Below, piece by piece: positions 9,264-43,571 of a stretch of 45,612 bases of DNA; within the stretch, counting starts at the first letter, position 1; the number at the start of each line of letters is the position of its first letter. The position numbers and the translations under genes are program-made. Under the pieces are notes generated by a model. The model did no database searches. It had not been told where the DNA came from and saw only the letters and a program-made list of their open reading frames with translations. This DNA is from an uncultured virus (IMG/VR IMGVR_UViG_2061766007_000731) (lineage: Duplodnaviria > Heunggongvirae > Uroviricota > Caudoviricetes): the IMG/VR virus record IMGVR_UViG_2061766007_000731; one strand, written 5' to 3'.

Positions 9264-9295
9264 AAAATGAAATTTTTTATTATTTATTCTAAATA

Positions 9296-9327
9296 CAAAA
9301 TTAACCTTTTTATAAAAGATTTCCAAA
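9296..9327 (-). promoter_or_regulatory. Bacteroidota housekeeping-type promoter
   Basis: TTTG-N20-TAATTTTG matches the -33/-7 consensus TTTG..TAnnTTTG. Confidence 0.7.
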
Positions 9328-9328
9328 T

Positions 9329-11295: not shown

Positions 11296-11298
11296 CTC

Positions 11299-12057: not shown

Positions 12058-12074
12058 CTCTTATTTGTTTTATA

Positions 12075-13666: not shown

Positions 13667-13676
13667 AATTTATATT

Positions 13677-19004: not shown

Positions 19005-19582
19005 TATCCGTTTTCATATATATCATAAGATTGAGCAATGGGGGCAATATCTGGATTATCGCGTAATTCTTTTAGAGCGTTTCATTGATTTGAAATTACA
19101 AAAGATAATAAACCAAATGTAATAAAGTTATTATCTTTAGCTCATTGTAAGATATCCATTACTTCTCTATGTTTTTCTGGATTATGACTTATTTGAGTAG
19201 AATAAAAGAAGAAAAATTCATCTAAAGAAGAAAATCTTTTAGAGATATCTTTTAAAGGAGCATATTTTCCTTGAATTAATAAAAATGGAGGATAAGCGTC
19301 AAATAATTCTTGTCCCATTTTTAATGAATTCTTAGTTCAAGATTTAATAAAGTTTTTATTAAATTCTATTTCATTTGGATTTCAAGCATCCGCATTATAA
19401 TTTTTATGTATAATGTTTTTATCTTTTAAAGATTCAAATAAAGATCTTAATCGTATAGAACCACCATTATTAAATCATTGATTAAAATATTCTATATGTC
19501 CACCTNNNNNNNNNNNNNNNNNNNNCTCATCTGCTGTAATATCATAAGTTGTCATTAAGTTTAAAATAGTTTTAATTTCCAA
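19004..19582 (-). CDS. hypothetical replication-module protein (TGA=Trp)
   Basis: 193-codon frame open only with TGA readthrough (5 TGA); ELFDAYP motif; lies between the two helicases. Confidence 0.65.
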
Positions 19583-19618
19583 AATTAAATAAATTTTACA
19601 ATCTATTTAACTACATAG

Positions 19619-20824: not shown

Positions 20825-23800
20825 TAGAATAAAGTTTGATTTTGACTCTCTTCAATAGCATAAATTATTTTATAAATTTCATTTGAATATCATAAATAAT
20901 TTATATGCGCATCTTTTGGGGCTATGTTTTGAAATTCGTTAAAAATAGTAACATTGGACGTAGCACATAAGTCTGCATAATCAGATCGTATTCCAGTTTC
21001 TTTATCAACAACACATCTACGTATTTTATATCCATTTGTTGACATATAATACCTATTAATGTGTGTTAATAACTGGCCGTTATACTCAATACTAAATTCC
21101 TTTTTAACTTTTTGATAAGTTAAGAACTTTTTAATATCGTTACAATTATATAATGTTTCTTTGACTGGAATCTTATTTACAAAATATTCTTTTAAACATT
21201 CTGCAATAATTTGTGGAGACATGCCTTTACCTAATTGAACAGTATCGATAAACAAACCTTTTGTTTTAATTAGTTTTGGATCATGTGTTTCTGAATATCC
21301 TTTATAAACGCCGATATAATCATTTACAGCATATTGATAAAACGCTTCAAAATATTCGTGTTCTAATTCAAATCGAGTTATATGCTCTCAATTATGACAT
21401 ATATTCATAATATCATCAATTTTATCTTTTGGCGCCATATATAATACACCATCTGTATTTAATTGACCAATTTTACAACCACTTTTAATTAATTGTTCAG
21501 TTAACATTAAAAGCATTAATTGACAATTTAATCTTAATCGTAAAACTGTTTTAGGATCATAACATCATGAATACTCATTTTGTAGCATGCCTGATATACC
21601 ATTCAATGCTAATTTATATGTTTGGTTAATAACATTATTGCCCTCTCTTTTAGCTTTAATTCTATCAGCTCGTATTCTTTTATAAGTATCAAGAAATTCA
21701 GGCCCTAAATGTTGAGGATATAAACCAAAATTAATTATCGCACTTGGATACATTGCTTAACCAATAAACTTTCGTTTATTGCTGGACTATCTCATCTTTT
21801 AAAAATTTTTTTCATTTATAACCGTATATAGTTGGCTTTTCACCATTACACGCAGCATAAATATTATGTCTTTTTCAATTTGGATTTTCTTTTAATATAT
21901 CATAGACAGAGTCTCAAACTTTAATTAGTTCCTCAGTCTCTTTATTATATTGATAAAAACGATATTCGGTTCGAGAAACACTGACTTTTTTCTTCATATC
22001 TTCTTTCAATTGAGGATTTTCATCTCAGTGTTTATTTCTTATCTCGCACGCTTTTTTTGGAGCTTCGGGATTAATAACTCTTTCTCCAGACTTAAATTCA
22101 GTTTTAAGACGTTTTGACATAATTAATTTTTGTTCATCTGTTCATTTGTTTCCAAAATTTGGATTTTTCTCACCAGTAAATATTTCAGATTTTAACTTTC
22201 TTGTTTCTTCTGATACAATTACACCGGTTGAAGAATCTCTTCTTAAATTATATCCAAAATCTTTATCAGTAGCATTTAGTTCAACTATTCAAAAATCTTC
22301 ACGTTCTCTTAACAATTCTTCATTTAATTCTAATTCTTCAATAACAAAATATTCAAAGTTATAGGCTCCGTATTTNNNNNNNNNNNNNNNNNNNNNNNNN
22401 NNNNNNNNNNNNNNNNNNNCTATTTTCGTTTTTATCTTTATTATTTAGAAGATATTTATGACTAATTATTCTTTGATAAATATCTTTTGACTTACCAACA
22501 TATACTTTTTTATTAATTTTATTAACTATNNNNNNNNNNNNNNNNNNNNNNNNNNNNNNNNNNNNNNNNNNNNNNNNNNNNNNNNNNNNNNNNNNNNNNN
22601 ATATTTTATTTTAAAATTATATGCAAATATACAAAAATTAATGGTTGTATCCAAATATATTTTTAATTTTTAAAAGTTCCCTTTTTAGTCTCTGAGCCTT
22701 CTTCCATACGGAAGNNNNNNNNNNNNNNNNNNNNNNNTTTATATTTTTACCATCGTTTTGATTAGAAACGCCCTATAATATATTTCTATTTATAGTTGGT
22801 AATAAAAGCTCTAAAGACGTTCCCGCAGTTTAAGGAATTTAACGTGCGCCAATGTTACCTAACGCACAATCGCTATCTATAATTACTCATTTATCATCGG
22901 ATTTATAAATTGCAGGCTTATTTTTAGTATGAATACCACCTAAAGAATATGTAATTTCAATATCGTTAAGATAAACTGTAATTTTTCAACGATCTTTTTG
23001 ATCTTTATTACGTTCTTCTTCTAAGTTTAAATGTGTACTAAGAATTTGTTTATGTAATTTTTGTAGTTCTGGAGTTTCAAAATGAATAAAATCAAATATA
23101 ACATCTTTTAAATCTAACTGATTACATGGACTACGAAGATTTTTAATTTCGTCTCAATGTTTTCCAGTATCTTTTAAATAATTATTCTTAATAATTTCAA
23201 CTCCAAGATTAACTCCATCCATATTAAGTACATTAACACCAAATGTTTTATCTACATCTTCTCGTAGCTTAATATCTTTTTCTAGACGAAACATTAACTC
23301 TTTAGTTGATAAAATGTCATTAATATTATAACTAATTACATTATCAAATTCTGATTCTGGTAAATAACTATTAAAATCTCCTTCATATTCACGAACATTA
23401 GAATATTCCATAGTTACTTGTAACTCTTTTAAACCAACCCTTAACTTAGAAGCAAACATCATTGTTAATAAATCTAAATGACTAAATAAATTAGCATATT
23501 TATATTTACTTCATGAAGCTACTTGATCTNNNNNNNNNNNNNNNNNNNNNNNNNNNNNNNNNNNNNNNNNNNTAAACGTTTATTTATTTCTCAAACGGGA
23601 AGTTTTACAAGTTCATCTATATTCAAAATAATATAAGAAATAATAGGAGAATCGTAATGAATAGTATTAAATCCGACAAATATAATATTTTTATTAAGAT
23701 ATAAATTTGCAATATCTAAAATATCATTCTTACGTTGTGATATTTCAAAAACCTTAATATTATTAGAATTAACATTTACTNNNNNNNNNNNNNNNNNNNN

Positions 23801-23851
23801 NGGAAAAATTTCAATATCATGAACAAATGGAGTTTTACCTTTAATAAACAT
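20824..23851 (-). CDS. family B DNA polymerase, 2 exons (23851-22862, 21755-20824; TGA=Trp)
   Basis: ExoI DIEIF, GFNTIHYD, YNIND; motif A DCAS^MYPS; motif B KLALNGISG; motif C NTDG. Confidence 0.93.
21776..22529 (-). CDS. intron-encoded GIY-YIG endonuclease (start in N gap; TGA=Trp)
   Basis: NKINKKVYVGKS...REDF*I...FGYNLR, GEKNPNFG (NUMOD3-like), IYGYK* (NUMOD1-like). Confidence 0.82.
22624..22655 (-). promoter_or_regulatory. intron-internal Bacteroidota-type promoter
   Basis: TTTG-N20-TATATTTG upstream of the endonuclease ORF. Confidence 0.7.
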
Positions 23852-24705
23852 TAATATTCTTTTTCTTTAAGATGTATTCCTTTATATTCTGCAACTCTTT
23901 CAATATTACGTTTTAAGATTTTTCATTTATCAATGTGATAATCTGTATCAGCATCAAGTAAAATTAAAACTTTATCTCTAAATAATCGTAAAGTGGTTNN
24001 NNNNNNNNNNNNNNNNNNNNNNNNNNNNNNNNNTAATTGCATTAAACATCTAAATTCTCCGTATGAAAACCCATTTGGATTAACTCTTAATTTTACATTA
24101 TCCAAAAACAAACGTTCTTTAATAACATCTAATCAAGGTCTTTGCTTATTATTATTATATTCAGTAAGTTCTTTCTTTTCTTCTTCTGTTAATCAAATTC
24201 CTTGTGACACAATAAAATTATCAGATAACATTTTTCGATTAATTACTTCTAACTTATCGAAACATGCTTTCATTAATTGATCTAATGTAACAGTTTCAAA
24301 TTCTTTTGGTACGTTTCCGAATAAAACTGTTACAGAATTATTTCCATTTAGATTATTACTAGATTTTTGAGTTCGTATAAAATCAGCTATTTGTAAACCA
24401 GTTTTAAGCATTTCTACGTCACAGTCATGCAGTATATATCTTAATAATAATTCTGCATTACAATCTGATATAAGAGTTTTTAAATTAAGTTTCATTACTT
24501 CTTTACCAGGTTGAAAACGATTTTTATTATATAACATATCTGTAGTATGAAAATATGCTTTTTGCAATTCTTGCTGATTCATATCCACTAATCGTATATC
24601 TCTACCATCCTTTAATCTTCATATCAATTGCTGAATATCATTATTTTTATCATCAATTGCTGTTTGAAGATTACTTAATTCTGTAATAACCTTTTCATTC
24701 TTCAT
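23851..24705 (-). CDS. hypothetical protein upstream of PolB (TGA=Trp)
   Basis: ORF fragments 24193-24588 and 23923-24111 join into 285 codons on TGA readthrough. Confidence 0.72.
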
Positions 24706-24711
24706 ATTTAT

Positions 24712-25051
24712 CTAAAATTTATAATCTTTATTTATCTCTTCTTTTTGTCTAATAAAATTCATAAAATAATTAGTTGAATAATTATATTGTTTTGTAATTT
24801 GAGACGCTCTCTCAAAATAATTTTCACCAGCCTCAACAAAATCATACTCTAAAAATCCAACATCACCTATTTTTATAATTTCNNNNNNNNNNNNNNNNNN
24901 NNNNNNNNNNNNNNNNNNNNNNNNNNNNNNNNNNNNNTACAGTAATATATTTAAATATACTATTTTCTGGTACATCTAAATTTTGAAAAACATAATTTTT
25001 ATAAATTCCGTCTTGTTTAGCTACTAATTTACTCAAAATCGTGTTTCTCAT
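24712..25051 (-). CDS. hypothetical protein (spans N gap)
   Basis: MRNTILSKLVAKQDG...IGDVGFLEY... Confidence 0.6.
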
Positions 25052-25223
25052 ATAAATTTTTNNNNNNNNNNNNNNNNNNNNNNNNNNNNNNNNNNNNNNN
25101 NNNNNNNNNNNNCTTGTGTAGATATTATATCTAACGTTTTAAATATAATATCGTCATTTTCTTGTCGTGTTTTTTTATTAACGTCTAATTCTATATTATC
25201 TTCTTCTGATTTAAATTTCATTT

Positions 25224-25589
25224 TTAATAAACTATTATTCTATAAATAGATTGATGAAAATCAAATTGATATTCTTTTTCTAATAAATAATAAAATGTAC
25301 TAGAAATTGTAAATCTATGTTTTCCTATATATACAATCATCCAAAATTTATCATCGGTTGTAAAATATTTTAACAAGTCTTCATCTCTAAATTGAATAAG
25401 ATTGTCAACATTATCTGTATAATTTTCTTTTAACAGATAAATACGATTTACTATTTCATATTTATTAGGATCTAGAGTATCTAAAAATCTTTCTAATCTA
25501 TTATCTAACACCAGATCTTCTGGATTATCATGAGGTATATTTAAATACCAATGATTTCCAATCTTTTTAAAAACTAATTGTTTTAACAT
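25224..25589 (-). CDS. hypothetical protein
   Basis: Intact 121-aa ORF; Trp encoded only by TGG. Confidence 0.65.
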   Translation of the reverse strand: MLKQLVFKKIGNHWYLNIPHDNPEDLVLDNRLERFLDTLDPNKYEIVNRIYLLKENYTDNVDNLIQFRDEDLLKYFTTDDKFWMIVYIGKHRFTISSTFYYLLEKEYQFDFHQSIYRIIVY

Positions 25590-26028
25590 AATCTTCTGGT
25601 AGATTTAAACATTTTGCGGCATGTTGTGCTAACATATCAGCATAATTATTCATAACGTCTTTATCATGACCTTTAACTCAAACTAAAGTAACATTATGAA
25701 ATTTAATTAGATCTAAAAGTTCGTATCATAAATCTATATTCTTTTTTGTATAATCTTGATTATTAAATCAAGTTTCTACTCATCCTAACATAATAGAATT
25801 TACCACATATTGTGAATCAGAATATATAGTAATACTAATTTTTTCTTTAAATCATTTTAACGTATTAATTACAGCTAACAATTCCATACGATTATTAGTT
25901 GTATTAGTCATACCACAATATAGTTTTTTAATTATTTTATTGTTTTTTAATATTATAGATGCTCATCCACCAGTATTTATTTTTGGTTGATATGAACCAT
26001 CACAATATGCAATATAATTTTTACACAT
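25567..26028 (-). CDS. rnhA: ribonuclease HI (TGA=Trp)
   Basis: YCDGS...GG*A, TTNNRMEL, YSDSQYV, KNIDL*, *VKGH, N.YAD.LA; TGA occupies the conserved Trp sites (25726-25728, 25678-25680). Confidence 0.93.
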
Positions 26029-26052: not shown

Positions 26053-26415
26053 TTAATCTTTAACGTTATAATATTTTAAGACTTCTTGTTCAATGTCTCT
26101 AGCGTTAGTAATAAATAATTTAGAAATTTTATCCTCTGGTTTAATATTTACAACGCGATACGGTTTATGAAGAGCTCTATGGTATGATATTTTTTGTCCT
26201 AATTTACGACGAAAATCGTCATTACTAGAACATTTTGCAACACCATACGACATTGTTTTTTCCACATCATCATAAATGCCACAAATTGTTACACGAGGAA
26301 TGTTATCATAAGTTTGAATATTATTAATTTTTAAAATTAAATCTCTACTATCAACTGTAACCATTGCTATAGCACGACGTAAAGCACTGCCATAATAATA
26401 TTTTTCTTTTTTCAT
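26053..26415 (-). CDS. hypothetical protein
   Basis: Intact ORF containing YGVAKCS.NDDF.RKLG..IS. Confidence 0.65.
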   Translation of the reverse strand: MKKEKYYYGSALRRAIAMVTVDSRDLILKINNIQTYDNIPRVTICGIYDDVEKTMSYGVAKCSSNDDFRRKLGQKISYHRALHKPYRVVNIKPEDKISKLFITNARDIEQEVLKYYNVKD

Positions 26416-26427
26416 ATGTTATTTATT

Positions 26428-26727
26428 TTATGTACATTCAACTTCTACTAAAATTTCTTTAGTATTTTTATCACGATATATTTTAGTTATTTTATTATTA
26501 CTATCAAGACAATAACCTGGATAAATCATAGGGCCTCCATCAAAATCCAATCCTTCAATTTCATTATCGTTAGAATATAAAATTCTAAGATATGCGCCAA
26601 AGTTTGGATTATTTTCCCATTTACAAAATATTTGGTAAACTCCAATATTATCAGTTATTTGATATAATAATCTTAACTCTTTAATTTGTTGAGAAGGTCT
26701 TTCTCTTAATTCAAACGTTAAATTCAT
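26428..26727 (-). CDS. hypothetical protein
   Basis: ATG overlaps the GroEL stop; contains DFDGGPMI. Confidence 0.6.
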   Translation of the reverse strand: MNLTFELRERPSQQIKELRLLYQITDNIGVYQIFCKWENNPNFGAYLRILYSNDNEIEGLDFDGGPMIYPGYCLDSNNKITKIYRDKNTKEILVEVECT

Positions 26728-28266
26728 TAATTTATAATTATTTCTGGAACAATTGTACAATATGTACTTAAAAATAAACAAGTGGTAGATATTGCATTTT
26801 CCAATGCTAATCTAGCACATTTTGCAGGATCTATAATACCTTCTGCATACATATCTACAAATTCATTGATATTTGCATCATATCCAATGTTATTTGTAAG
26901 ATTTTTATATAATTTATTGGGTATTAATCCTGCGTTTTCAACTATTTTATTAAATGGAGCTATTAAACCAGCTTTTAAAACAGATTGAGCATAAGGTGAT
27001 ATAGCATTAACACTATTAATGTTTTTACACATATTATAAAATACTAACCCTCCTCCTGGAATAACACCCTCTTCTACAGCAGCTTTTGTTGCACATACAG
27101 CATCGTCTACTCGATCTTTTCTTTCACGAAGTTCTAACTCTGTAGTACCTCCAACAAAAATTGTACAAATACCTGAACTGAGTTTAGCGATACGTTCTTC
27201 TAAAAACTTAATTTTAAAAGAACCATTTAATTCAGAAGTATTTTTAATTTTATCTAATTCTGATTTAATTTCTTGAATTCGATCATTAACATTACCTTTA
27301 CCACCAATAATCGTTGTATTTTCTTTTGTAATAACAACTTTATTACAAGTACCAAGATAATTTAATTTTGTATCCGTTAGTTTTAAACCAGAATCATAGG
27401 ATATGTTATAACCTTCTGTCAATACCGCAATATCATCTAAAATTGATTTTCTATATTCACCAAACGATGGAGCTTTAACTAAACATCCTTTTATTCTTTT
27501 TTCTAAAACATTTAATTTAAATGTTTCANNNNNNNNNNNNNNNNNNNNNNNNNNNNNNNNNNNNNNNNNNNNNNNNNNNNNNNNNNNNNNNNNNNNNNNN
27601 NNNNNNNNNNNNNNNNTTGTCTAAATTACAAACATCTTTGATTCTATCTGTAACAAAATGAGGAGCCACATAGCCTTTATCAAACTGCATTCCATCAATA
27701 ATCTTAATTATTGTATCAATATTCTGTGATTGGTCTACATTAATAATTCCATCTTTGCCAATTTGTTTAAAAGCGTTATTTATTAATGTGCCTATAGAAT
27801 AATCATTATTAGCAGAAATTGTAGCAATGTTTAATATATCCTCATCTTTAATAGGAATTATATATTTTTTAAACTCATCTAATAAATCACTAATACTCTT
27901 TTGAATTTCTTGTTTCAATTTAATAGGATGTATTTTATCTTTTGCAATAAAATCCGCTGCTTTATTAATCATAGCTTGAGCCATAACTACAGAAGTAGTA
28001 GTATTATCACCAACTAGTCCAAGCATTGTTTCTGCAGCTTCTCGTATTAATTGCACACCTGCGTTTTCAGTTAAATCTTTAGTTTCAACATATTTTGCAA
28101 CAGTAACGCCATCCTTAGTAATTATTGGTTTTTTATCAATATCGCCAATAATTACACAATTTCCTTTTGGACCAAGTGTACATCCTACCGCATCTCCTAA
28201 TAAATTAATTCCACGTAAAAGTGATTTTTTAGCTTTATTACCAAATTTAACATCTTTACTAAACAT
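26727..28266 (-). CDS. groEL: chaperonin GroEL/Cpn60 homolog (spans N gap)
   Basis: TLGPKG, ITKDGVTVAK, GMQFDKGY, KAPSFG, VGGTTELEL.ERKDRVDDA..AT.AAVEEG..PGGG, GIIDP. Confidence 0.93.
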
Positions 28267-29369
28267 TAAAAGCCAATTTTTCTTTTAGGTTTATTACTAT
28301 AATCTTTATTATCAAAATTATAAATCTCTGCCAATGTCATAGATTTTGGATTATCAATTTTATATCCACGTTTCTCTAATAATTTCTTAGATTTTTCTGC
28401 GTCTAATTCTTTAAATTCATAATTAGCAAAACACCTACCCTTTCTAAGTAGTGCTTCATCAATCATATTCATATCTGCATTAAATGTACATATAAACTTA
28501 ATGTTAAATATATCAGATAATAATCCATCAGACATATTCAGTATATTCGCTATACCAGAACTAAAGAAATTAGCATCTGTTCTTTTTCTAAGAATTTGTT
28601 CACAATCTTCTAAAATGAATATACTATCTTTATTATCTAATAAAAATGAAACAAATTCTGGAGAACCAAGATGTTCTGCAATTTGATTCGTAATAAATAC
28701 ATAGTGTTTTGGTGTAGAAACAATTAAATGTTTTATTAAGCTAGTTTTACCAGTTCCAACATCACCTCTTAATAAAATTAGTCCACTTTCTCTTCTATTA
28801 ATAAAATTAACTATATCGTCATATACTGGTAAAAAATCATCATTATAATTTTCTTTAACGTTAACATTAATAGTGTTTATTTCAGATGTAATGTTGTAAT
28901 ATTCTCCTTGACTATAAGCAACTAGATCAATTTCTTTACTTTTAGGTTGATACTTACTTAATGGTAAAATACTCATTAATTTTTCATATAAAGGAATAGG
29001 ATCTTGATTGTAATACATTATAGTAATACTGTGTGCATCCATAATATAAAATACATCATTATCGTATATTACAATATTTAAAGAATACCATTTACCATGA
29101 ACATAAATACAATCTTTTAAATTTTCACTATCTTCAAATTCTTCAATATTTTCGTTTTGATTATCGTCTGTAATAAATTGTACATATTGAATAATTGCTT
29201 CCGGATAATGTTCTTCTAAAATTTTAGGATTAAAGTTTTTTAAATCAATACTTATGTCTGAAAATTTATGTATATATTTTAATGGAGGGTGATTATTAAC
29301 AATCAAATAAGCTTTTAATAATCCAATCTCGCCATTAGAATAAGCATCTATCCAATTAATTTCTTTCAT
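28266..29369 (-). CDS. AAA+ ATPase
   Basis: Walker A GDVGTGKT, Walker B ILED, ILNMSDGL, IDEALLRKGR, C-terminal RKIGF. Confidence 0.88.
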   Translation of the reverse strand: MKEINWIDAYSNGEIGLLKAYLIVNNHPPLKYIHKFSDISIDLKNFNPKILEEHYPEAIIQYVQFITDDNQNENIEEFEDSENLKDCIYVHGKWYSLNIVIYDNDVFYIMDAHSITIMYYNQDPIPLYEKLMSILPLSKYQPKSKEIDLVAYSQGEYYNITSEINTINVNVKENYNDDFLPVYDDIVNFINRRESGLILLRGDVGTGKTSLIKHLIVSTPKHYVFITNQIAEHLGSPEFVSFLLDNKDSIFILEDCEQILRKRTDANFFSSGIANILNMSDGLLSDIFNIKFICTFNADMNMIDEALLRKGRCFANYEFKELDAEKSKKLLEKRGYKIDNPKSMTLAEIYNFDNKDYSNKPKRKIGF

Positions 29370-29826
29370 AATTAATTTAAGTTTATATTTAATATTTTTG
29401 CCACATTATAAATTATANNNNNNNNNNNNNNNNNNNNNNNNNNNNNNNNNNNNNNNNNNNNNNNNNNNNNNNNNNNNNNNNNNNNNNNNNNNNNNTAAAA
29501 TTTGTTAAGCCAAATTCATCTAAATCATACTCTTTATTATTAGATGTTTTTAATAATCCAATAAGTCGTCGTTCGTTTAAATTTTGTTGAGATTTTAACT
29601 TATTTTTATTATCATCGACTTCTANNNNNNNNNNNNNNNNNNNNNNNNNNNNNNNNNNNNNNNNNNNNNNNNNNNNNNNNNATACGTGCAATGATTCTTT
29701 TTTAATAATATAACACATTTATCAAAATCTGTAATATTATCATATCCATCTAATATACCATATTGATTTTGTATTCTATCTAAATGTGGTTTATAATTCA
29801 TCTATCTGTATATTCATTTTACATCG

Positions 29827-29900
29827 CCCCCACGTTTCGATTCGAACAAAAATCTAATTGTTTTGAAGACAATTGCATTAGCCAATTATGCTACATGGGG
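29827..29900 (-). tRNA. opal suppressor tRNA, anticodon UCA (probably Trp-accepting)
   Basis: Acceptor CCCCAUG/CGUGGGG with G73; anticodon stem AUUGU/ACAAU and loop CU-UCA-AA; T loop UUCGAAU; short variable loop; CCA not encoded. Confidence 0.9.
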
Positions 29901-29913
29901 TAGGCCATACCAA

Positions 29914-30873
29914 TTATTTATAATAACTTTCGAATTCATTAATACTTTGAATTTCGTATTCAACATTTTTACGAAATTCGTTTAAGTTATGACATCCTGT
30001 GAGTGACATAGAACTTCTTAAAGCTGCTTCAAATGCAATAGCAAATTGTGATAAATTTGTATCTACTGTTACACAAGTTACTATACCTTCTGGTTGTCTA
30101 ATAACCTTACCAAATAAATCTATTTGACCAGCTTCCGAAGCCATTCCGTAATAAGCTCTTTTCTTTGGAGATTGTTCGACTATATCACCGCAAGCTTCTT
30201 CACATTTAGCAAACATTTTGCCCATCATTACATAATCTGCTCCTAAAGCAAGACATTTAATAGCCTTATCGATAGTATCTATACCGCCATCAATCACTAC
30301 TTTTGGACATTTATCGCTTTGAAGAACTGCTTTAGCTGAACGAATATTACGCAGCATATATTCATGACTAGCATGAACCGCTGTTAAAACAGATGTTGTA
30401 CAAGCATTACCACCACCAATACCTATCCTAACATAATCTACACCAGCATTAAAACATTCAATATACATTTGAGGATGGGCAATATTGCCAACCATAATTG
30501 TTAAATCTGGATATAAACCTTTAGCTTTACGAACGGCATTATATAATCTTTCCATATGACCATCTGCAATATCAATTAAAATATGTAATTGATCAAGATC
30601 ATATTTCATAAATACATTCTCAAAATCATCCAGAGAACAAGCAATCCAATCATCAGGAGTAATATAATTAGGCATTATATTTCTAGGAACAATTGGAATA
30701 AATTTAGAATGTTTAAATCTTATGTAATTATCGTCATCAATGATACATGTCATTGGAGAAACAAAAATCGGAAGCTTTCCATTTTCATCAAATGGATTGA
30801 CTTCCGATCTATGATTAATATCAACTGGAGTTGCACTGGCTAACAGTGAAACTTCATCTAAACTATACATCAT
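29914..30873 (-). CDS. IMP dehydrogenase / GMP reductase family protein (no CBS domains)
   Basis: SPM, IDIADGH, VGNIA, RIGIGGGNACTT, DGGI, KCLALGADYVMMG, YYGMAS, EG. Confidence 0.88.
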   Translation of the reverse strand: MMYSLDEVSLLASATPVDINHRSEVNPFDENGKLPIFVSPMTCIIDDDNYIRFKHSKFIPIVPRNIMPNYITPDDWIACSLDDFENVFMKYDLDQLHILIDIADGHMERLYNAVRKAKGLYPDLTIMVGNIAHPQMYIECFNAGVDYVRIGIGGGNACTTSVLTAVHASHEYMLRNIRSAKAVLQSDKCPKVVIDGGIDTIDKAIKCLALGADYVMMGKMFAKCEEACGDIVEQSPKKRAYYGMASEAGQIDLFGKVIRQPEGIVTCVTVDTNLSQFAIAFEAALRSSMSLTGCHNLNEFRKNVEYEIQSINEFESYYK

Positions 30874-31159
30874 ACATCTATAATATTAATGTTTTATTAT
30901 TTTGTGTTAATTCTGTTCTATCTAGAGGTCGTATAATCTCAAATTCTGCGTACTGTAACGCATTATCTTTATCTGTATATACTACATATATAATATTAGA
31001 TTTATTTCCATACACTCATCCGTCAAATAAATCATCTTCAATTTTTATCTTAACATCATCAAAAGTTTTAATATTTCCGATATTTTTCTTAATGAATGTT
31101 TTTTGGTTATCTAATACTTTTAATTTTTTGTTAAATAATTTTTTTAATATATTCATATT

Positions 31160-31748
31160 TTAACCATCTAAGCACTCAAAATATAGCAAAGTGGGATTAT
31201 TTTTATGAATATCGATATCAGGAAATTTCTCACCAAATAATGTAGTATTAAATGGTCTCATAATTAAATGTACTCCATGAGCNNNNNNNNNNNNNNNNNN
31301 NNNNNNNNNNNNNNNNNNNNNNNTTTAGGATCACACCAAATTTCAATAAAATTTAAAATATCTACAGTTTTTTCTACATTTTTGCCGTCTAAGTCTACTA
31401 TAAACTTTTTATCTTTAGATATATAAGATTTACCACATGCTGTTGAATATGCACCCTTAAGACCTACTATATTATTACCAGATAAATACATATCTGTAGT
31501 AACTCTTAACATCATATTTGCAACTTCTTTAAAACTTCTTTTAGTTGGATGAATATAAGCTCTTGCGTTTAAAGCATGACAAATAGATTTTATTTCTTCT
31601 TCTTTATCTATTAGTTCTTTAACAGATCTTATTGTATAATATTTGACTAATCTATTTTTATTATTACCATTCATTCCAACCTCTTTATGTCCATCTTTTC
31701 CTCTTATTAAAATTTGTACGAAATAAAATTCATCCTCGTTATTAAATT
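31160..31748 (-). CDS. hypothetical protein (5' part in N gap)
   Basis: FYFVQILIRGKDG...NARAYI...FIVDLD...HGVHLIMRPF...HKNNPTLLY. Confidence 0.6.
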
Positions 31749-32271
31749 NNNNNNNNNNNNNNNNNNNNNNNNNNNNNNNNNNNNNNNNNNNNNNNNNNNN
31801 NNNNNNNNNNNNNNNNNNNNNNNNNNNNNNNNNNNNNNNNNNNNNNNNNNNNNNNNNNNNNNNNNNNNNNNNNNNNNNNNNNNNNNNNNNNNNNNNNNNN
31901 NNNNNNNNNNNNNNNNNNNNNNNNNNNNNNNNNNNNNNNNNNNNNNNNNNNNNNNNNNNNNNNNNNNNNNNNNNNNNNNNNNNNNNNNNNNNNNNNNNNN
32001 NNNNNNNNNNNNNNNNNNNNNNNNNNNNNNNNNNNNNNNNNNNNNNNNNNNNNNNNNNNNNNNNNNNNNNNNNNNNNNNNNNNNNNNNNNNNNNNNNNNN
32101 NNNNNNNNNNNNNNNNNNNNNNNNNNNNNNNNNNNNNNNNNNNNNNNNNNNNNNNNNNNNNNNNNNNNNNNNNNNNNNNNNNNNNNNNNNNNNNNNNNNN
32201 NNNNNNNNNNNNNNNNNNNNNNNNNNNNNNNNNNNNNNNNNNNNNNNNNNNNNNNNNNNNNNNNNNNNNNN

Positions 32272-32670
32272 AGACGGCCAATTTTCAATATATCCATCAG
32301 AATTAATTGTAAAACATAACATTTCACCATTATCAATTAAATCTAGTTTCAAATATTCTGGAATATTTTCAATATCTGCAAATATTTCATTATATGTATT
32401 TGATAAATAAATACATATATGTGATTTTAATTGAAAATTAATAATAGCTCTTATTCCTTTTGGCCAACAAACTACTTGACCAGTTTCAAGAATAATTCTA
32501 GGATTCCATTCAAAACCAGATCTTTTGTAAGTTAAAAATGGAAGATTTTTAATTGTTTGTGCTGTAGAAGATACGTTATTTATTCTACATTGACTAAGAT
32601 CTTCTAATTCAAACTTACAATCAACATATTTGATTTCATATGTTTTTGTTAGTGTTTTTGTTAGTTCCAT
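32272..32670 (-). CDS. hypothetical protein (3' end in N gap)
   Basis: Open frame from the ATG at 32670. Confidence 0.55.
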
Positions 32671-32671
32671 A

Positions 32672-33526
32672 TTACATCCAACACTGTAAATTACAGTGAT
32701 TATCTATTTGATAATTTATTTTATTATTTATTTCTTCCCAACTAATTGGTGTAAAATTATTAAAATCTACTCCAACATCATACTGTGTAGGAAGATAGCA
32801 TTTGACAAATTCCGAATCAAATCCAGTATTGTTATTTCTAATATGTGTGTGTCCAGATAAAGCAAAATGTAATTGATCTTTTGGATATTTATCAGAATTC
32901 CAATGAGCAAAAGTTAAAAATGGAAAATGATTTAAATACACTGTACGACCATCTACGTTAATACGCATTTGATAGGTTACATAATCAAATAATAAATCTG
33001 TTCCTGTAGTTCTATTTTTATCATCCTTGTTGTTTAGTGTAAGTCGTTAATTTACACCCATATAGCTCATACTTCATTTAATATGAGAACTGACTATATC
33101 TTCACCCTTGACGTTACTCATTAGGGGCAGGGCATTTGGAGTCACTTGACTCTACTTCCATTTCAGGAATAGTCGATGAACCTTCTGTATTATCTACAGC
33201 TTGGCTGCTGATTACCATCTCAGGCTTTCCAGCAATTAACCCTGTTTCACTTAATGATTTCTCATTAAGAGCACAAATTATTTATGATTACCTACAATTA
33301 GTATAATATGACCATTAAGTTGATCTCTAATTTCTTTCCATTTTGGAAATCCTCCAAAAACAAAATCACCAAGATGAAACACAGTATCATCTGGTCCAAT
33401 AACAGAATTCCAATTATTAATTAAAGTTTGATCATGTTCTTCTATTGTATTAAACGGACGATTACAGAATTCTAAAATTTTAGAATGTTTAAAGTGGGTA
33501 TCGGACGTAAACCACAATCCATTACC
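32672..33526 (-). CDS. calcineurin-like metallophosphoesterase, 2 exons (>33526-33284, 33025-32672)
   Basis: FTSDTHF, HLGDF, GNH^D, LNHFP, GHTH, DVGVD. Confidence 0.88.
33026..33283 (-). mobile_element. ORF-less group I intron (258 nt) in the GNHD motif
   Basis: AATTGCTGGAA, AATCAGCAGCCAAG, TTCATCGACTA, AAGATATAGTC; exon ends in U, intron ends in G, frame is restored. Confidence 0.92.
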
Positions 33527-33904
33527 NNNNNNNNNNNNNNNNNNNNNNNNNNNNNNNNNNNNNNNNNNNNNNNNNNNNNNNNNNNNNNNNNNNNNNNNNN
33601 NNNNNNNNNNNNNNNNNNNNNNNNNNNNNNNNNNNNNNNNNNNNNNNNNNNNNNNNTCATAATCATCGTAGTCAGATAGACAACGACCATCCTTATATAC
33701 GTAATAATGTCTATTACATTCCATAATATTCCTTAATAGTTATAGAACCTGGATAATAATATCTACGAATACCATTAGGTTTTATTTCAACATAGCCCAT
33801 AAATTTACCATCAACTAAATATAAGTTAACTTCAATTTCTTTATTATCTGATTTGCGATATGCTTTCATAAATGATGTTTTAGTTAATAAATTAAGTTAA
33901 TATT

Positions 33905-33981
33905 TGGTTAAATGATGAGATTCGAACTCACTACCTGAAGAACCACAATCTTCCGCTCTAACCAAATGAGCTACATCCAAC
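33905..33981 (-). tRNA. tRNA-His(GUG)
   Basis: G-1:C73; anticodon arm GAAGA-UUGUGGU-UCUUC; GTTCGAATC. Confidence 0.9.
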
Positions 33982-33986
33982 ATATA

Positions 33987-34076
33987 TGGCGGAAATGCTC
34001 GGTTCCGACCCGAATTCAATAAAATCGAACGATCTGCTTAGCAGGCAGTCCCTATTCCTTATAGGTTGCTATTTCC
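33987..34076 (-). tRNA. tRNA-Ser(GCU), atypical D/T arms
   Basis: CUGC-CUGCUAA-GCAG, long variable arm, GCCA end. Confidence 0.8.
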
Positions 34077-34078
34077 AA

Positions 34079-34165
34079 TGCGGTAGGCATCCTAGTCGAA
34101 AAGAATCCTCAAAAGGACCAACTGTTTTCAAGACAGTGCTTGCAATCCCTGCAAGTTTACCTACC
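34079..34165 (-). tRNA. tRNA-Ser(UGA), atypical D/T arms
   Basis: ACUGU-CUUGAAA-ACAGU, long variable arm, acceptor GGUAGGU/GCCUACC, G73. Confidence 0.8.
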
Positions 34166-34171
34166 AAAAAC

Positions 34172-34873
34172 CTAAATATTAAGAATTAAGGGTTCGTATG
34201 TAATATGATAATTTTCATCCTTTAATGATACATTTACTAGCTTAGTATTATTATGTATACTAATATTATGATCTCCAGAATGAACATGCCCAAAGAAATG
34301 ATATTTAGGATTTAAATAATTAATAGCATCTGCCAATTCTTGACAACCGTAGTCCGCACCAGTATTAAACATATTTTCTTGTAAAACAGTACCACATGTA
34401 CCAAATTTTGGAGGGCAGTGTGTTAATAATATATCACAATTTGGATAAATTAAACCAAATTTGTCATTAAGCTTTTTATGATCTCCATAAAAAGCCCATC
34501 TCTTTAAATCTGGACACCAAGGAGTTCCATAAATAATTTTACCTTTATAAGAATATTCATTATCACAAAGATAAACTAATTTATTATTGTCTATTCTAGA
34601 TGTTAATAATTGTTCTTTAACTTCCCAAGCATCGTGAAAATGTTTTGGACCAAGCTCATCCATAAAGAAATCATGATTTCCTGCAATAAATATAACTTTA
34701 TCACATTTTAACTTATCCGTCCATGGAAGGAAAGATAATAAAAACCACGAAACACTTTTAATTATATCATTTTGATATTGCAATGGGACAATATCTCCAC
34801 AAATGCATACTAAATCACACTCTGGTAATTCTGGTAAATACCCGTGTAAATCACTAATCGCTATTATTTTCAT
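34172..34873 (-). CDS. metallophosphoesterase
   Basis: ISDLHG, CGDI, AGNHD, LLTHCPP, FGHVH. Confidence 0.88.
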   Translation of the reverse strand: MKIIAISDLHGYLPELPECDLVCICGDIVPLQYQNDIIKSVSWFLLSFLPWTDKLKCDKVIFIAGNHDFFMDELGPKHFHDAWEVKEQLLTSRIDNNKLVYLCDNEYSYKGKIIYGTPWCPDLKRWAFYGDHKKLNDKFGLIYPNCDILLTHCPPKFGTCGTVLQENMFNTGADYGCQELADAINYLNPKYHFFGHVHSGDHNISIHNNTKLVNVSLKDENYHITYEPLILNI

Positions 34874-35054
34874 GAACTGTAATATTAGGACGATTAAATA
34901 TAATATCTGCACAAACTAATAACGCTACACTTTGACTAAAACTTAAATCAAAATTTAAAATGCCGTTACCAATCCACATTAAAACTAATGCACTAACAAG
35001 TAACACACCAATATATACCAATAATTTAACAAATAATAATACAAATCCTTCCAT
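34854..35054 (-). CDS. small membrane protein
   Basis: Two hydrophobic segments in 66 aa. Confidence 0.6.
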   Translation of the reverse strand: MEGFVLLFVKLLVYIGVLLVSALVLMWIGNGILNFDLSFSQSVALLVCADIIFNRPNITVHENNSD

Positions 35055-35725
35055 AATTAATCATAATAATCATACATTTTGTATAAATCTTCATAATATT
35101 CATCAGATCTATAATTACAACAATCGTCTTCGTGATAATCCTCAAATCGTGGGTGATGTGTAGATTGTGATTTAGTTACTTGAGTTTTACTACCTGTTGT
35201 TTGTTTAGGTTTAGATCTATGAAAAATATACTTATCATTTTCTAATAAGTTAACTACCTNNNNNNNNNNNNNNNNNNNNNNNNNNNNNNNNNNNNNNNNN
35301 NNNNNNNNNNNNNNNNNNNNNNNNNNNNNNNNNNNNNNNNNNNNNNNNNNNNNNNNNNNNNNNNNNNNNNNNNNNNNNNNNNNNNNNNNNNNNNNNNNNN
35401 NNNNNNNNNNNNNNNNNNNNNNNNNNNNNNNNNNNNNNNNNNNNNNNNNNNNNNNNNNNNNNNNNNNNNNNNNNNNNNNNNNNNNNNNNNNNNNNNNNNN
35501 NNNNNNNNNNNNNNNNNNNNNNNNNNNNNNNNNNNNNNNNNNNNNNNNNNNNNNNNNNNNNNNNNNNNNNNNNNNNNNNNNNNNNNNNNNNNNNNNNNNN
35601 NNNNNNNNNNNNNNNNNNNNNNNNNNNNNNNNNNNNNNNNNNNNNNNNNNNNNNNNNNNNNNNNNNNNNNNNNNNNNNNNNNNNNNNNNNNNNNNNNNNN
35701 NNNNNNNNNNNNNNNNNNNNNNNNN

Positions 35726-36386
35726 TCAATTTTCTTTCCATTTTTTTCTATAACAAAATCAAGAAAATATTTTTTAGTAGAAAAATCTTCTCTGACATAA
35801 ACTATATTATGTTCATCTAGAACTTTCATTCAGAATTGTTCAGAATAAGATGTTATATTCCTAGATTGTCAACCAGAAAAACTTCCTGCTTGTTTTCTTT
35901 CTTCAACTTTATTTCTTAATTTTTGCTTTACTTCTGGATCAGAATTAGAACATTTGTTAGAACAATACTTAGCATTTGAATTTTTGGATAAGAATTCTTT
36001 ACCACAAATTTTACAAACACACTTAACTTTCAATTTCCTACTATTAGTTCTTGGAATAGATAAATATTCTTCTAAAGATAATCCTAATCTATTAGCATTT
36101 TTCTTTAATAAAGTTTCAGATATTTTCTTTTTCTGTTCTTTTGTAATAGATTCTCTTTGTTTATTATTATAACTAGCAGCACAAGACTGACAACAGAACT
36201 TTCTTTTAAATCTATCCTTCCCTTTAATCTCTTCGCCACAGTTTAGACAGTAAACTTTTCTAGTTTTATAATCTTGTATATGTTTTTCTAAATCAAAATT
36301 AAAATTGTCTAAACATCATTGACGTACTTTTTCTTGCATTTTACCATTAGTATAACTTTTATTAAATACTAATTTAATAGCTTCTG
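35726..36386 (-). CDS. free-standing Zn-finger + Vsr/DUF559-like endonuclease (both ends in N gaps; TGA=Trp)
   Basis: CLNCG..FCCQSC, CKICG..YCSNKC, SG*QSRNITSYSEQF*MKVL...YFLDFVI; in-frame TGA at 35869 and 35830. Confidence 0.65.
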
Positions 36387-36439
36387 NNNNNNNNNNNNNN
36401 NNNNNNNNNNNNNNNNNNNNNNNNNNNNNNNTTTACTTG

Positions 36440-36515
36440 TAGGGTAGACGAGGCTCGAACTCGCATAAATGTCTTCATCCCAAATGAAGCCGGTAACCAA
36501 TTACCGTACTACCCT
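36440..36515 (-). tRNA. tRNA-Pro(UGG)
   Basis: CUUCA-UUUGGGA-UGAAG; acceptor AGGGUAG/CUACCCU; GTTCGAGCC. Confidence 0.88.
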
Positions 36516-36520
36516 ATGTA

Positions 36521-36563
36521 AGAATTTAGTTCAAATGATTCTAGCCAACTGAACTAAATCCCG
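36521..36563 (-). pseudogene. tRNA 5'-half remnant folded back on itself
   Basis: CGGGATT-TA-GTTC-AGTTGGCTA-GAAT (acceptor strand + D arm) followed by TGAACTAAATTCT, complementary to its own 5' end. Confidence 0.55.
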
Positions 36564-36566
36564 TAG

Positions 36567-36638
36567 TAGCGGGAAATGGATTTGAACCATTGACCTTTAG
36601 CTTATGAGGCTAACAAGCTACCACTGCTCTATCCCGCT
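36567..36638 (-). tRNA. tRNA with CAU anticodon (Met; Ile2 not excluded)
   Basis: UUAGC-CUCAUAA-GCUAA; acceptor AGCGGGA/UCCCGCU; GTTCAAATC. Confidence 0.85.
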
Positions 36639-36976
36639 ATACATTCTTCCATTACAATTTTTACTATAATATCTAAATTCATCATTATTTGTTGATAAAT
36701 ATCCCATTTTTCTTCATGTTTTTGACATGGCCAATCAACTAAAATAATTTCATATTCACATCTACCCCAAAATTGATACATAGATTCATCTTTGACAAAT
36801 TGTTTAAATTCATCAAATGTAACTGGTACATCAAAATACTTATCATACTTATTATCAATTCTCTTATGATGAAAATCTATTCTCTTTTGATAACAATTTT
36901 TTAGATAAGGTATTATGTCATAAGCAATAAACTTCTGTCTATTACAATCGTAATTTATTACATTAAAACTTTTCAT
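36629..36976 (-). CDS. hypothetical protein
   Basis: YDIIPYL...YQFWGRCEYEIIL..WP...DIYQQI..N; stop codon lies inside the tRNA(CAU) 5' end. Confidence 0.7.
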   Translation of the reverse strand: MKSFNVINYDCNRQKFIAYDIIPYLKNCYQKRIDFHHKRIDNKYDKYFDVPVTFDEFKQFVKDESMYQFWGRCEYEIILVDWPCQKHEEKWDIYQQIMMNLDIIVKIVMEECIAG

Positions 36977-36991
36977 AATATTTAAAATTAG

Positions 36992-37076
36992 AGCCAGAAG
37001 CCGGATTCGAACCGACGGTGCGCATAAGCATCTTGATTACAAGTCAAGCGGAGTCGACCAGCTGTCCCATTCTGGC
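36992..37076 (-). tRNA. tRNA-Thr(UGU) with long variable region
   Basis: GCCAGAA/UUCUGGC with U73; CUUGA-CUUGUAA-UCAAG; 14-nt variable region; GTTCGAATC. Confidence 0.82.
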
Positions 37077-37108
37077 AAATTTCCCATTTATTCTCTGGGA
37101 ACAGGAGA

Positions 37109-38326
37109 TTAAATTAATTCAGTGGTATTAAAAATATGGTCTTCAATATCTGTACGTTCACCAATTAAATCACCAAGATTTCTTTGTATTTCTGTACATA
37201 ATTTACACTTAATTATGTTTTTAATAAGATCTTGTGAAATATCTTGTGGATAAATATTAACAACCAATTCTTCTAAATTAGATGGAATATATCCAGATTC
37301 TGAAGCAATTAATATTGCATTAAATATATAAATCCAAAAAATTATTTTATTAAGATTATAAGATGGTCTTAAAAATCTAAACTCAATAGTTTTTCCGGTA
37401 TTATAACATAATGCGTTTATAAAATTTACAAAAAAATACCTTGTATGAATATTCCATTTTCTTTCGTGTGCAATATCAGCAGGATGTGGTTGATGTAAAT
37501 CACCAAAATAATTTAATCCTACCATATACTTATATAATTGTTGAAAAGATGAAAATACCGTTGGTAGCATTTTACAATAATCTTTTCCAGTGTTTTTATA
37601 TAATGACGATTTAAATGTGTATTCAGGTACAATACTTGCAATTTGATTTTGCAAATTTACACAAATTTGATAAACATTAAATATAAAGTTAGGATCTAAT
37701 TTTATATTCCCTAAATGAATATGAAGTGAACAATTTTTATCAAAATATGTGTATTCTTTCATGGTATCGATTTGTTGTTTTAAAAGATTCAATCCATCGT
37801 TACCATCTAGAATAACAGTTGAATATTCGTTTCCACTAATAGATCCATCTCTTAATGGAATTAATCCGTCTCTAAAACATATATTCTCTGGAATAATTCC
37901 GGTTGCTGTTTCAAATTCAACACCTAATGTATATTTAAGAAAATGAGATAATTTAAAATCTATTTTATCATTGACAATTGTTTGTTTGTTTTTAAATAAG
38001 TTTAAGTGCTTATTTGCTCCATATTCTTTTATGAACGTATAATTATATCCAGTGGTGGCACCATATTTACAATATATAACTTCAGATTGATCAACCAATT
38101 CATCTAATAATTGATAAATACCAATAGATTTGTTAAAAACGACACGATTTTGAAATTTTTCTTTATTATACCAAAGACAAGTTCCATGATGGTTTAACTC
38201 AATTAGTTTACTAACATCTGTCGTATATTCGTAGATTTTAATACCATCTATAACATCATTGACAAAACGAATAGAACAATTTATATGTTCATACTTTTTA
38301 GTAAAAAAATCTTTAACCAAAGGCAT
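37109..38326 (-). CDS. putative amidoligase (COOH-NH2 ligase, glutamate-cysteine ligase fold)
   Basis: LGVEFE, DGSI.GNEYST, CSLHIH, RY..VN, TIEFR. Confidence 0.82.
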   Translation of the reverse strand: MPLVKDFFTKKYEHINCSIRFVNDVIDGIKIYEYTTDVSKLIELNHHGTCLWYNKEKFQNRVVFNKSIGIYQLLDELVDQSEVIYCKYGATTGYNYTFIKEYGANKHLNLFKNKQTIVNDKIDFKLSHFLKYTLGVEFETATGIIPENICFRDGLIPLRDGSISGNEYSTVILDGNDGLNLLKQQIDTMKEYTYFDKNCSLHIHLGNIKLDPNFIFNVYQICVNLQNQIASIVPEYTFKSSLYKNTGKDYCKMLPTVFSSFQQLYKYMVGLNYFGDLHQPHPADIAHERKWNIHTRYFFVNFINALCYNTGKTIEFRFLRPSYNLNKIIFWIYIFNAILIASESGYIPSNLEELVVNIYPQDISQDLIKNIIKCKLCTEIQRNLGDLIGERTDIEDHIFNTTELI

Positions 38327-38338
38327 AATTTAAATCTC

Positions 38339-39439: not shown

Positions 39440-39440
39440 G

Positions 39441-43509: not shown

Positions 43510-43571
43510 ATCTTCTTTATTAAAAATAAAGAAAATGCCCACAGTACATTTTCTTTATTTATTTTCAGTTA

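Follow-up and report, generated by a model that had tools for sequence, protein, structure and literature searches.

Suppressor tRNAs and reassignment of TGA from stop to tryptophan (Trp) have been described in crAss-like phages (Yutin 2021, PMC7886860), with an imperfect agreement between recoding and detectable suppressors; here and below, statements on published work pertain to parts of the respective publications. In the Zeta group of these phages, PolB is encoded in four fragments, and TGA occurs in the polymerase and in the intron open reading frames (ORFs) alike (PMC7886860, Fig. 7c legend for TGA-containing PolB). The code-switch model set out in the Borges preprint (10.1101/2021.08.26.457843) has replication genes that are 'variably' recoded, and UGA suppressors are reported there to be tryptophylated in E. 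coli; in the Mgcod preprint (10.1101/2022.06.29.495998), early genes are dual-coded and the switch mostly comes after a change of the coding strand. We analyzed an opal suppressor tRNA gene, hereinafter tRNA(UCA), that is located in a 45,612-nucleotide (nt) stretch of viral DNA from the record IMGVR_UViG_2061766007_000731 (the whole stretch is hereinafter the window, and positions are numbered from its first letter). Comparative evidence makes it quite probable that tRNA(UCA) is a functional Trp-type elongator that decodes UGA and, by wobble, UGG, for a phage that writes most of the Trp codons in its replication, nucleotide-metabolism and homing-endonuclease genes as TGA. An initial annotation of the window had proposed that this tRNA is a stand-alone opal suppressor that precedes a recoded block of genes, and that interpretation is, overall, supported.

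Public sequencing runs labelled bovine gut metagenome contain the stretch, and 0.70 of its words are present in one further study. Profile scans (56 ORFs against PHROGs and 36 window ORFs against Pfam) show that the content of the window is that of a phage. The best matches of its DNA polymerase among the GenBank phages are crAss-like phages, with up to 48% identity, and the gene for a protein resembling IMP dehydrogenase and GMP reductase (hereinafter IMPDH-like) and the helicase gene have relatives with 45-46% identity on viral contigs of 140-179 kb. In a complete relative of 178,874 nt (G002), 26 of the 57 window ORFs find matches with 30-60% identity, and a megablast search with 25 kb of the window against GenBank phages gave no match. 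Taken together, these similarities suggest that the window is a fragment of a phage related to the Zeta-group crAss-like phages, with the genes for TerL, the major capsid protein and the portal located outside the window.

The locus resembles the Zeta phages in several respects. Both belong to the same wider lineage: two relatives, L042 and L061, with 45-46% identity of the IMPDH-like gene, are contigs listed as group zeta, subgroup zeta_14, with the translation 'TGA|w' (PMC7886860 Supplementary Data 1). Shared features include numerous tRNA genes, an opal suppressor tRNA, the absence of any detected phage tryptophanyl-tRNA synthetase (TrpRS) or release factor (RF), split polymerase and NrdD genes, TGA-containing homing-endonuclease ORFs and a high intron density. 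The differences are that the GC content of the window is about 24%, compared to 28-37% in the Zeta phages (PMC12386605 Table 1); that the window comes from cattle gut, whereas theirs come from human gut; that the zeta_14 contigs carry an odd 91-nt tRNA(UCA) in another genomic slot, whereas that of the window is a plain 74-nt cloverleaf; and that the Zeta papers stress the recoding of late genes, whereas the recoded genes of the window are replication genes (PMC7886860, PMC12386605). In agreement with the code-switch model of the Borges and Mgcod preprints, the gene that changes the code conforms to the standard code and precedes the recoded genes, the early genes fit both codes, and the host TrpRS is assumed to charge the suppressor. 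Unlike the Jade phages, which encode their own TrpRS and RF1, the window has neither among the genes found. A typical switch separates standard-code replication genes from recoded late genes across a strand change, whereas the window is transcribed from a single strand throughout and its replication genes are the recoded ones. Within the cited parts of Yutin 2021 and the Borges preprint, the arrangement thus matches what is already known for crAss-like phages, with variations and no new principle; what is particular here is the very low GC content with the resulting near-binary codon split, the within-strand switch ahead of replication genes, and the plain form of a tRNA that is enlarged in a close relative.

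The tRNA gene and its immediate surroundings are as follows:

29827..29900, minus strand: tRNA(UCA), 74 nt, C1:G72, G73, anticodon loop CUUCAAA, no encoded CCA (ARAGORN; Rfam RF00005)
29864..29866, minus strand: anticodon UCA, read as tga on the plus strand
29914..30873, minus strand: IMPDH-like gene (Pfam PF00478, 2.6e-39); 0 TGA, 1 TGG; marks the syntenic slot

The gene is real, and its detection by ARAGORN is confirmed by Rfam. Of the five tRNA genes that ARAGORN identifies in the window, each of them on the minus strand, one is located at 29826-29900 and has the anticodon tca, and the Rfam tRNA family RF00005 matches the minus strand at 29827-29900 with 59.8 bits (gathering threshold 29; E = 1.4e-10), over the full length of the model (positions 1-71), which is the second best score among the five tRNAs. 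The acceptor stem consists of 7 base pairs (bp), from C1:G72 to G7:C66 and including U6-G67, and is followed by the discriminator G73; the D arm has a 4-bp stem and a 9-nt loop with GG, the anticodon arm has a 5-bp stem, the variable loop is 5 nt long, and the 5-bp T stem carries the loop UUCGAAU. All 21 of the 21 stem pairs are standard, and the conserved tertiary positions are all readable in the sequence. The canonical cloverleaf with the anticodon UCA and G73, as given in the initial annotation, is therefore borne out, and so is the plus-strand tga at the anticodon, with the gene itself on the minus strand, like all genes of the window, which was left implicit. Neither this gene nor the other four tRNA genes of the window encode CCA (the 3' trailers were checked). 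When the tRNA sequence is folded alone, its stability has a z-score of -2.15, with 6 of 200 shuffles being as stable, and the minimum free energy structure differs from the exact cloverleaf.

In its sequence, tRNA(UCA) looks like a tryptophan-type tRNA, closest to phage tRNA-Trp(CCA). In a set of 79 tRNAs (taken from the window, G002, phage cr111_1 and the loci of six relatives), both tRNA-Trp(CCA) genes (2 of 2) rank first and second in similarity to it, with scores of 17 each compared to 8 for the next best. The anticodon arm equals that of the cr111_1 tRNA-Trp(CCA) at 19 of 21 positions, and the change of C34 to T is one of the two differences; with U34 instead of C34, the tRNA would read UGA. 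The discriminator G73, which is a recognition element of TrpRS, is common to the window tRNA, its counterpart in the relative L039 and both Trp(CCA) genes.

Several lines of evidence indicate that TGA is a Trp codon in this phage. When the RNase H gene, with its TGA codons read as X, is compared to solved structures of RNase H, Trp is found opposite X83, X87 and X101 in each of the 3 chains shown and opposite X22 and X117 in 1 of 3, and Ala is found opposite X59 in 3 of 3. In a code-free test, the window ORFs were aligned to the stop-to-stop frames of G002, and 42 window TGA codons in the matched ORFs could be compared: 11 face TGG, 10 face TGA, 5 Phe and 5 Tyr, and the remaining 11 comprise 2 Arg, 2 Lys, one gap and six single residues, with no Gly and no Cys. 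The TGG codons of the window behave comparably in this alignment, with 15 of 26 facing Trp. Altogether, there are 93 in-frame TGA codons in 31 ORFs, and PHROG and Pfam matches run across them; the codons are evenly distributed along the ORFs (13, 20, 25, 19 and 16 in successive fifths), with just 3 of the 93 in the final 10 codons. Because the ORFs were called under code 4, none of them can, by construction, end in TGA, and the ORF ends are not used as an argument. The helicase of the window has 5 in-frame TGA codons, and 5 of 5 relatives searched have 5-6. The base that follows TGA gave no coherent sign that strong RF2 contexts are avoided in the window or G002: C is depleted in the window (2 seen versus 10.9 expected; p = 0.035), and A is enriched in G002 (p = 0.001).

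The two closest relatives found, both short metagenome contigs, have a tRNA(UCA) in the same slot, after the IMPDH-like gene (L038, with 77%, and L039, with 75% amino-acid identity of the neighbouring gene). In a three-sequence comparison, aligned by hand to the cloverleaf, 9 of the 18 comparable pairs are changed on both sides between the window and L038, and 14 of 21 between the window and L039, with 0 pairs broken in either case, and the anticodon loop and the T loop are identical in all three sequences. This comparison indicates that tRNA(UCA) is under selection, with the pattern of a working tRNA. A 198-nt contig from an independent study is identical to the window across tRNA(UCA).

The genes of the window fall into two classes by their Trp codons, and the tRNA lies among those that avoid TGA. 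The features on which this division is based are:

26053..44612, minus strand: block compatible with the standard code; 29 TGG, 9 TGA; contains all five tRNA genes
33906..37076, minus strand: tRNA genes for His (GUG), Pro (UGG), Met (CAU) and Thr (UGU), all in the TGA-free block (ARAGORN, Rfam)
35254..36339, minus strand: HNH-type endonuclease-like ORF within the TGA-free block, partly masked (PHROG 1271); 3 TGA, 0 TGG
40498..41262, minus strand: LAGLIDADG homing-endonuclease gene within the TGA-free block (Pfam PF14528); 4 TGA, 0 TGG
1562..26028, minus strand: recoded block with replication and nucleotide-metabolism genes (PHROG, Pfam, codon counts)
25567..26028, minus strand: RNase H gene, the first recoded gene past tRNA(UCA) (Pfam PF00075); 6 TGA, 0 TGG
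1..1330, minus strand: RNA-ligase pieces, TGA-free (codon counts)

Every ORF of note is on the minus strand. Of the 57 ORFs, 17 contain only TGG (48 TGG, 0 TGA), 31 contain TGA (93 TGA, 15 TGG) and 9 lack a Trp codon. Among the ORFs with at least three Trp codons, 20 of 27 are pure TGA or pure TGG, compared to a mean of 4.07 and a maximum of 12 when the labels are shuffled, such that 0 of 20,000 shuffles reach 20. The third-position GC content (GC3) is 0.160 in the TGG-only genes and 0.131 in the rest, which argues against the TGG-only genes being recent imports from a GC-richer source. The division extends to G002, where the orthologues of the TGG-only genes have 0 TGA and 20 TGG (7 pairs) and those of the TGA-containing genes have 24 TGA and 17 TGG (14 pairs; Fisher p = 3e-6); the IMPDH-like gene, in particular, is free of TGA in the window, L038, L039 and G002. 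We take this conservation in a relative at about 45% identity to mean that selection has long kept TGA out of a particular group of genes. At the scale of a single ORF, the one at 9329-10933 consists of two units around a masked stretch, an HNH endonuclease part with 5 TGA and 0 TGG and a PDDEXK nuclease part with 0 TGA and 4 TGG.

The standard-code-compatible block contains glutamine-amidotransferase and amidoligase genes, genes for phosphoesterases, an AAA ATPase and a GroEL-like chaperonin, and the IMPDH-like gene. Of its nine TGA codons, the two homing-endonuclease genes account for seven and a 92-codon ORF of doubtful status for one, and the ninth lies three codons ahead of an ORF end, behind a masked stretch. 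The recoded block contains the genes for RNase H, the DNA polymerase (in at least 3 pieces), SNF2-type and DnaB-type helicases, primase, NrdD (4 pieces), NrdG and dUTPase, and at least 5 homing-endonuclease ORFs; from 1 to 26028, the RNA-ligase pieces included, there are 84 TGA and 34 TGG codons, with 23 of these TGG in units without TGA. The suggestion that TGA is read as Trp and that TGA-rich replication genes follow the suppressor downstream agrees with these counts and with the RNase H and G002 alignments.

The tRNA(UCA) gene begins 13 nt past the stop codon of the TGA-free IMPDH-like gene, inside the block at 26053-44612, and stands apart from the other tRNAs, as had been noted, the nearest of these being the His tRNA at 33906-33980, 4.0 kb away. 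In the readable sequence, it is indeed the last tRNA before the TGA-rich genes, a claim that has to be confined to the readable part: 4,375 of the 45,612 bases (9.6%) are masked as N in 41 runs, the longest of 564 nt, and runs of 78 nt and 57 nt are located shortly past tRNA(UCA) on its downstream side, so that masked stretches could conceal a short gene, such as another tRNA. Its placement upstream of the recoded block is correct in direction; it does not, however, stand at the boundary, given that five TGA-free ORFs, spanning 3.8 kb, intervene between it and the RNase H gene. The two homing-endonuclease genes upstream of the tRNA already use TGA, and the split is made gene by gene and does not strictly follow blocks. 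A scan for promoters and terminators over 29300-31300 yielded 12 promoter-like sites compared to 14.8 expected and no minus-strand terminator, and a search for a repeated promoter-like motif found nothing usable. The RNA run X17 contains three short contigs with 90-95% likeness, all in the IMPDH-like gene and none on the tRNA; DNA carry-over is possible for these contigs, and they are uninformative as to expression.

Several observations weigh against the interpretation of tRNA(UCA) as the Trp-inserting decoder on which the TGA-containing genes depend. First, the anticodon C34-C35-A36 of tRNA-Trp is not matched, with U34-C35-A36 keeping 2 of the 3 positions, and C34, which is replaced in this tRNA, is itself a TrpRS element. 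Likewise, the first pair is C1:G72 and not A1:U72, a minor element of bacterial TrpRS (L039 has A1:U72 and L038 starts with C1; the two compared phage tRNA-Trp(CCA) genes start with G1). In a piece of NrdD, 0 of 5 aligned TGA codons face Trp in 2 of 2 solved chains shown, although this alignment is distant. TGA-free genes also occur inside the replication block (a MazZ-like hydrolase, the PDDEXK nuclease and the RNA ligase), so that a simple positional division into before and after would be too neat. In a 5,179-nt contig of a close relative, from another cattle-gut run, about 87 letters in a 1.35-kb part of the neighbouring gene differ from the window, and positions 29802-29881, which comprise most of tRNA(UCA) and 25 nt beyond, are replaced by 69 different letters; the tRNA gene is therefore not fixed even among close strains. 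Finally, G002 is complete and has in-frame TGA on both strands, and no tRNA(UCA), release factor or TrpRS is detectable in it, which means either that a phage can sometimes do without a UCA tRNA of its own or that such a tRNA escaped detection.

The contents of the slot differ in other relatives. In 19 of 19 loci from the relatives at 45% identity, the first gene to follow the IMPDH-like gene is tRNA-Arg(UCU), and 11 of these 19 loci carry a GC-rich, odd tRNA(UCA) of 91 nt about 4 kb further on. Only ARAGORN reports this 91-nt tRNA (for example, L001:12249-12339), and the copies that were aligned (6 of 6) are identical. Its anticodon stem has 6 bp, its D loop is 3 nt long and its T loop is odd; it scored below the Rfam gathering threshold in 2 of 2 loci tested. 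For the contig OLXR01000011, a 'Sup TCA' is listed at the matching place in the tRNA order (Yutin 2021 supplement, PMC7886860). The variable contents across the relatives imply that the slot turns over.

The tRNAs that occupy the slot in the two closest relatives are themselves unusual. That of L039 (L039:1212-1303) is 92 nt long, with A1:U72, G73 and a variable region of 25 nt (about 20 extra nt), where a 4-bp hairpin has UCCAAA in its loop and so resembles an additional anticodon loop of the Trp (CCA) type; the window tRNA is without such a second hairpin. If a spare hairpin of this type served as a handle for TrpRS, the window tRNA would manage without one. In L038 (L038:1142-1818), a C1-type tRNA(UCA) is interrupted by a 609-nt insertion between U34 and C35. 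As with group I introns, U is the last letter before the insertion and G the last letter within it; the insertion encodes a 161-aa PD-(D/E)XK endonuclease (PF11645, 5.8e-14) with one in-frame TGA. A comparison of the insertion with Rfam gave no group I intron match up to E = 10, which leaves the intron reading unproven; should the insertion splice, the supply of the suppressor would hinge on splicing. In the titles and abstract openings retrieved by a single literature search, nothing pointed to a split phage suppressor tRNA.

The turnover of the slot, with Arg(UCU), split, enlarged and replaced versions, is what would be expected if tRNA(UCA) were a dispensable, fast-exchanging cassette that only raises efficiency, with UGA chiefly read by a near-cognate tRNA-Trp(CCA) of the phage or the host. 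The tRNA-Trp(cca) of G002, at 163650-163722, has a U11-A24 pair, and A24 in the tRNA-Trp of E. coli (the Hirsh suppressor) reportedly permits UGA reading; near-cognate reading may thus be a route to recoding without a suppressor, as in G002. For the window, we nevertheless consider this explanation improbable: 31 genes write Trp almost exclusively as TGA, with as many as 6 such codons in one gene, a load that inefficient near-cognate reading could hardly support; through many double changes, UCA and all stem pairs are retained in the three slot tRNAs; and no tRNA-Trp(CCA) was found in the window by ARAGORN or Rfam.

A second alternative to the Trp-type suppressor is that the host itself uses code 4. 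In code-4 organisms, such as Mycoplasma and many mitochondria, UGA and UGG are both decoded by a Trp tRNA with U34, the code applies to the entire cell, and RF2 is missing. The window shares with the native tRNA-Trp(UCA) systems of this kind an AT-rich genome, a preference for TGA as the Trp codon, and U34. A Mollicutes-like host, in which the phage tRNA, like the other four tRNAs of the phage, would be a mere supplement to codon usage without any code switch, would account for the very low GC content of the phage and for the relatives that have in-frame TGA but no detectable tRNA(UCA); host-encoded suppressors are, moreover, mentioned as a possibility in the Mgcod preprint (10.1101/2022.06.29.495998) and by Yutin 2021 (PMC7886860). 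We regard such a host as quite improbable. Unlike in code-4 organisms, TGA is strictly excluded from a subset of the window genes, a sign that UGA still acts as a stop in the host: the 17 TGG-only units have their 48 TGG and no TGA at a GC3 of 0.16, as opposed to the use of TGA for 93 of 108 Trp codons elsewhere, and the TGA-free state is kept in the orthologues at about 45% identity, a selection that a host natively reading UGA as Trp would not impose. The hosts proposed for the relatives are standard-code Firmicutes or Bacteroidetes, although these are predictions only (PMC7886860 Supplementary Data 1; PMC12386605 Table 1). That the host of this phage uses the standard code, we infer only from the selection against TGA in the 17 units.

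Insertion of another residue at UGA, namely, Arg, Gly, selenocysteine (Sec), Cys or Gln, appears very unlikely. ARAGORN labels the tRNA 'SeC', which is a consequence of the anticodon only; the syntenic slot is occupied by tRNA-Arg(UCU), with an anticodon one base away, in the more distant relatives; the Sup-TCA of phage Lera was assigned by tRNAscan-SE to 'either Trp or arginine' (PMC12386605); and the acceptor stem is without A1:U72. Against Arg, the slot Arg(UCU) tRNAs score 2 in similarity to the window tRNA, as opposed to 17 for Trp(CCA), and position 20 is C. Recognition by arginyl-tRNA synthetase (ArgRS) involves A20, so that C20 argues against this enzyme. In tRNA-Sec, the acceptor and T stems together form a helix of 13 bp (8 + 5 bp), the D stem has 6 bp and the variable arm is long, unlike the 7 + 5 bp acceptor and T stems, the 4-bp D stem and the 5-nt variable loop found here; Rfam clan competition also kept the general tRNA model, and the assignment to tRNA-Sec was rejected. 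In the alignment of 42 TGA codons to G002, the absence of Gly and Cys and the two Arg stand against the 11 TGG and 10 aromatic residues.

It is, lastly, most unlikely that tRNA(UCA) mainly harms the host, through readthrough of host UGA stops that weakens defence or the autoregulation of RF2, with the decoding of phage TGA being secondary or carried out by something else: such a role has been proposed for suppressor tRNAs of phages without recoded genes (PMC12386605), and G002 copes with in-frame TGA without a detectable UCA tRNA, but the 93 in-frame TGA codons in essential genes of the window need a decoder, for which tRNA(UCA) is the sole visible candidate, and the two roles are not mutually exclusive.

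How a Trp-type suppressor would be charged is constrained by the gene content. As the initial annotation had stated, no TrpRS or release-factor gene is visible: neither family is matched in the PHROG and Pfam scans of the window or in 5 of 5 related phage records, 4 of which are at least 90% complete, and the masked runs are too short to conceal a whole TrpRS or release-factor gene. Beyond the existence and conservation of the gene, we infer the following course of events, which is that of the published model and in our view the most probable mechanism. The tRNA would be transcribed with, or like, the surrounding TGA-free genes, which an unmodified standard-code host can translate; host enzymes would process it, add CCA and modify U34; the host TrpRS would charge it through G73 and C35-A36; and the accumulating tRNA would compete with RF2 at UGA, opening the translation of the TGA-containing genes. 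The points that had been left open in the initial annotation, namely, how the tRNA is charged and how RF2 is outcompeted, are the same as those already posed for recoded phages in the Borges preprint (10.1101/2021.08.26.457843).

More tentatively, and with doubt prevailing, a broader picture can be drawn from these comparisons. The two gene classes, split almost perfectly and conserved over about 45% protein divergence, would reflect an early-to-middle translational switch in which the suppressor gates the replication machinery and every homing endonuclease, and not only the late genes. The slot would be a replaceable cassette, occupied either by Arg(UCU) or by one of three forms of Trp(UCA), namely, plain, interrupted between U34 and C35 by an endonuclease-bearing insertion, or extended by a spare CCA-type hairpin, so that code switching might evolve by cassette exchange, and the plain version would indicate that the spare hairpin is not required for charging. 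The locus adds a clean, very-low-GC case from cattle gut to the phages that alter the meaning of UGA during infection. A short canonical 74-nt tRNA without an extra arm could be cloned to test how few features suffice for the charging of a UGA reader by a host TrpRS, and the near-binary, conserved TGA/TGG split could be used to predict the genes that are translated before the switch.

Searches for further copies of the tRNA gave 0 matches with the anticodon arm (exact search of IMG/VR) and 0 matches with the tRNA 5' part (exact search of metagenome contigs). A looser pattern search retrieved three unrelated phage tRNA(UCA) genes that share the anticodon arm, two with G73 and one with A73 and CCA; these were rejected as orthologues.

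Apart from the tRNA, the window contains a group I intron (Rfam 74.3 bits) at 33072-33293, which splits a phosphoesterase gene with exons at 33278-33724 and 32672-32968. A 31-nt piece of the 5' part of this intron is repeated near 45115 (45115-45145) at 84% identity and may mark a second intron. The pieces of the DNA polymerase and NrdD genes (20824-23851 and 4047-8389) are separated by GIY-YIG and HNH endonuclease ORFs, all of which use TGA. The GroEL-like gene at 26727-28266 consists of two reading frames that flank the masked stretch 27529-27616; the absent profile positions 218-311 match the length of the gap, which suggests a frame change or an effect of masking and not a deletion. Five TGA-free enzyme genes (11299-12057, 29914-30873, 37109-39439 and 43027-43542; Pfam) encode a protein with the N-terminal domain of dATP/dGTP diphosphohydrolase (PF18909), the IMPDH/GMP-reductase-like protein, the amidoligase and two proteins of the glutamine-amidotransferase type, and together these may represent a nucleotide or DNA-modification route.

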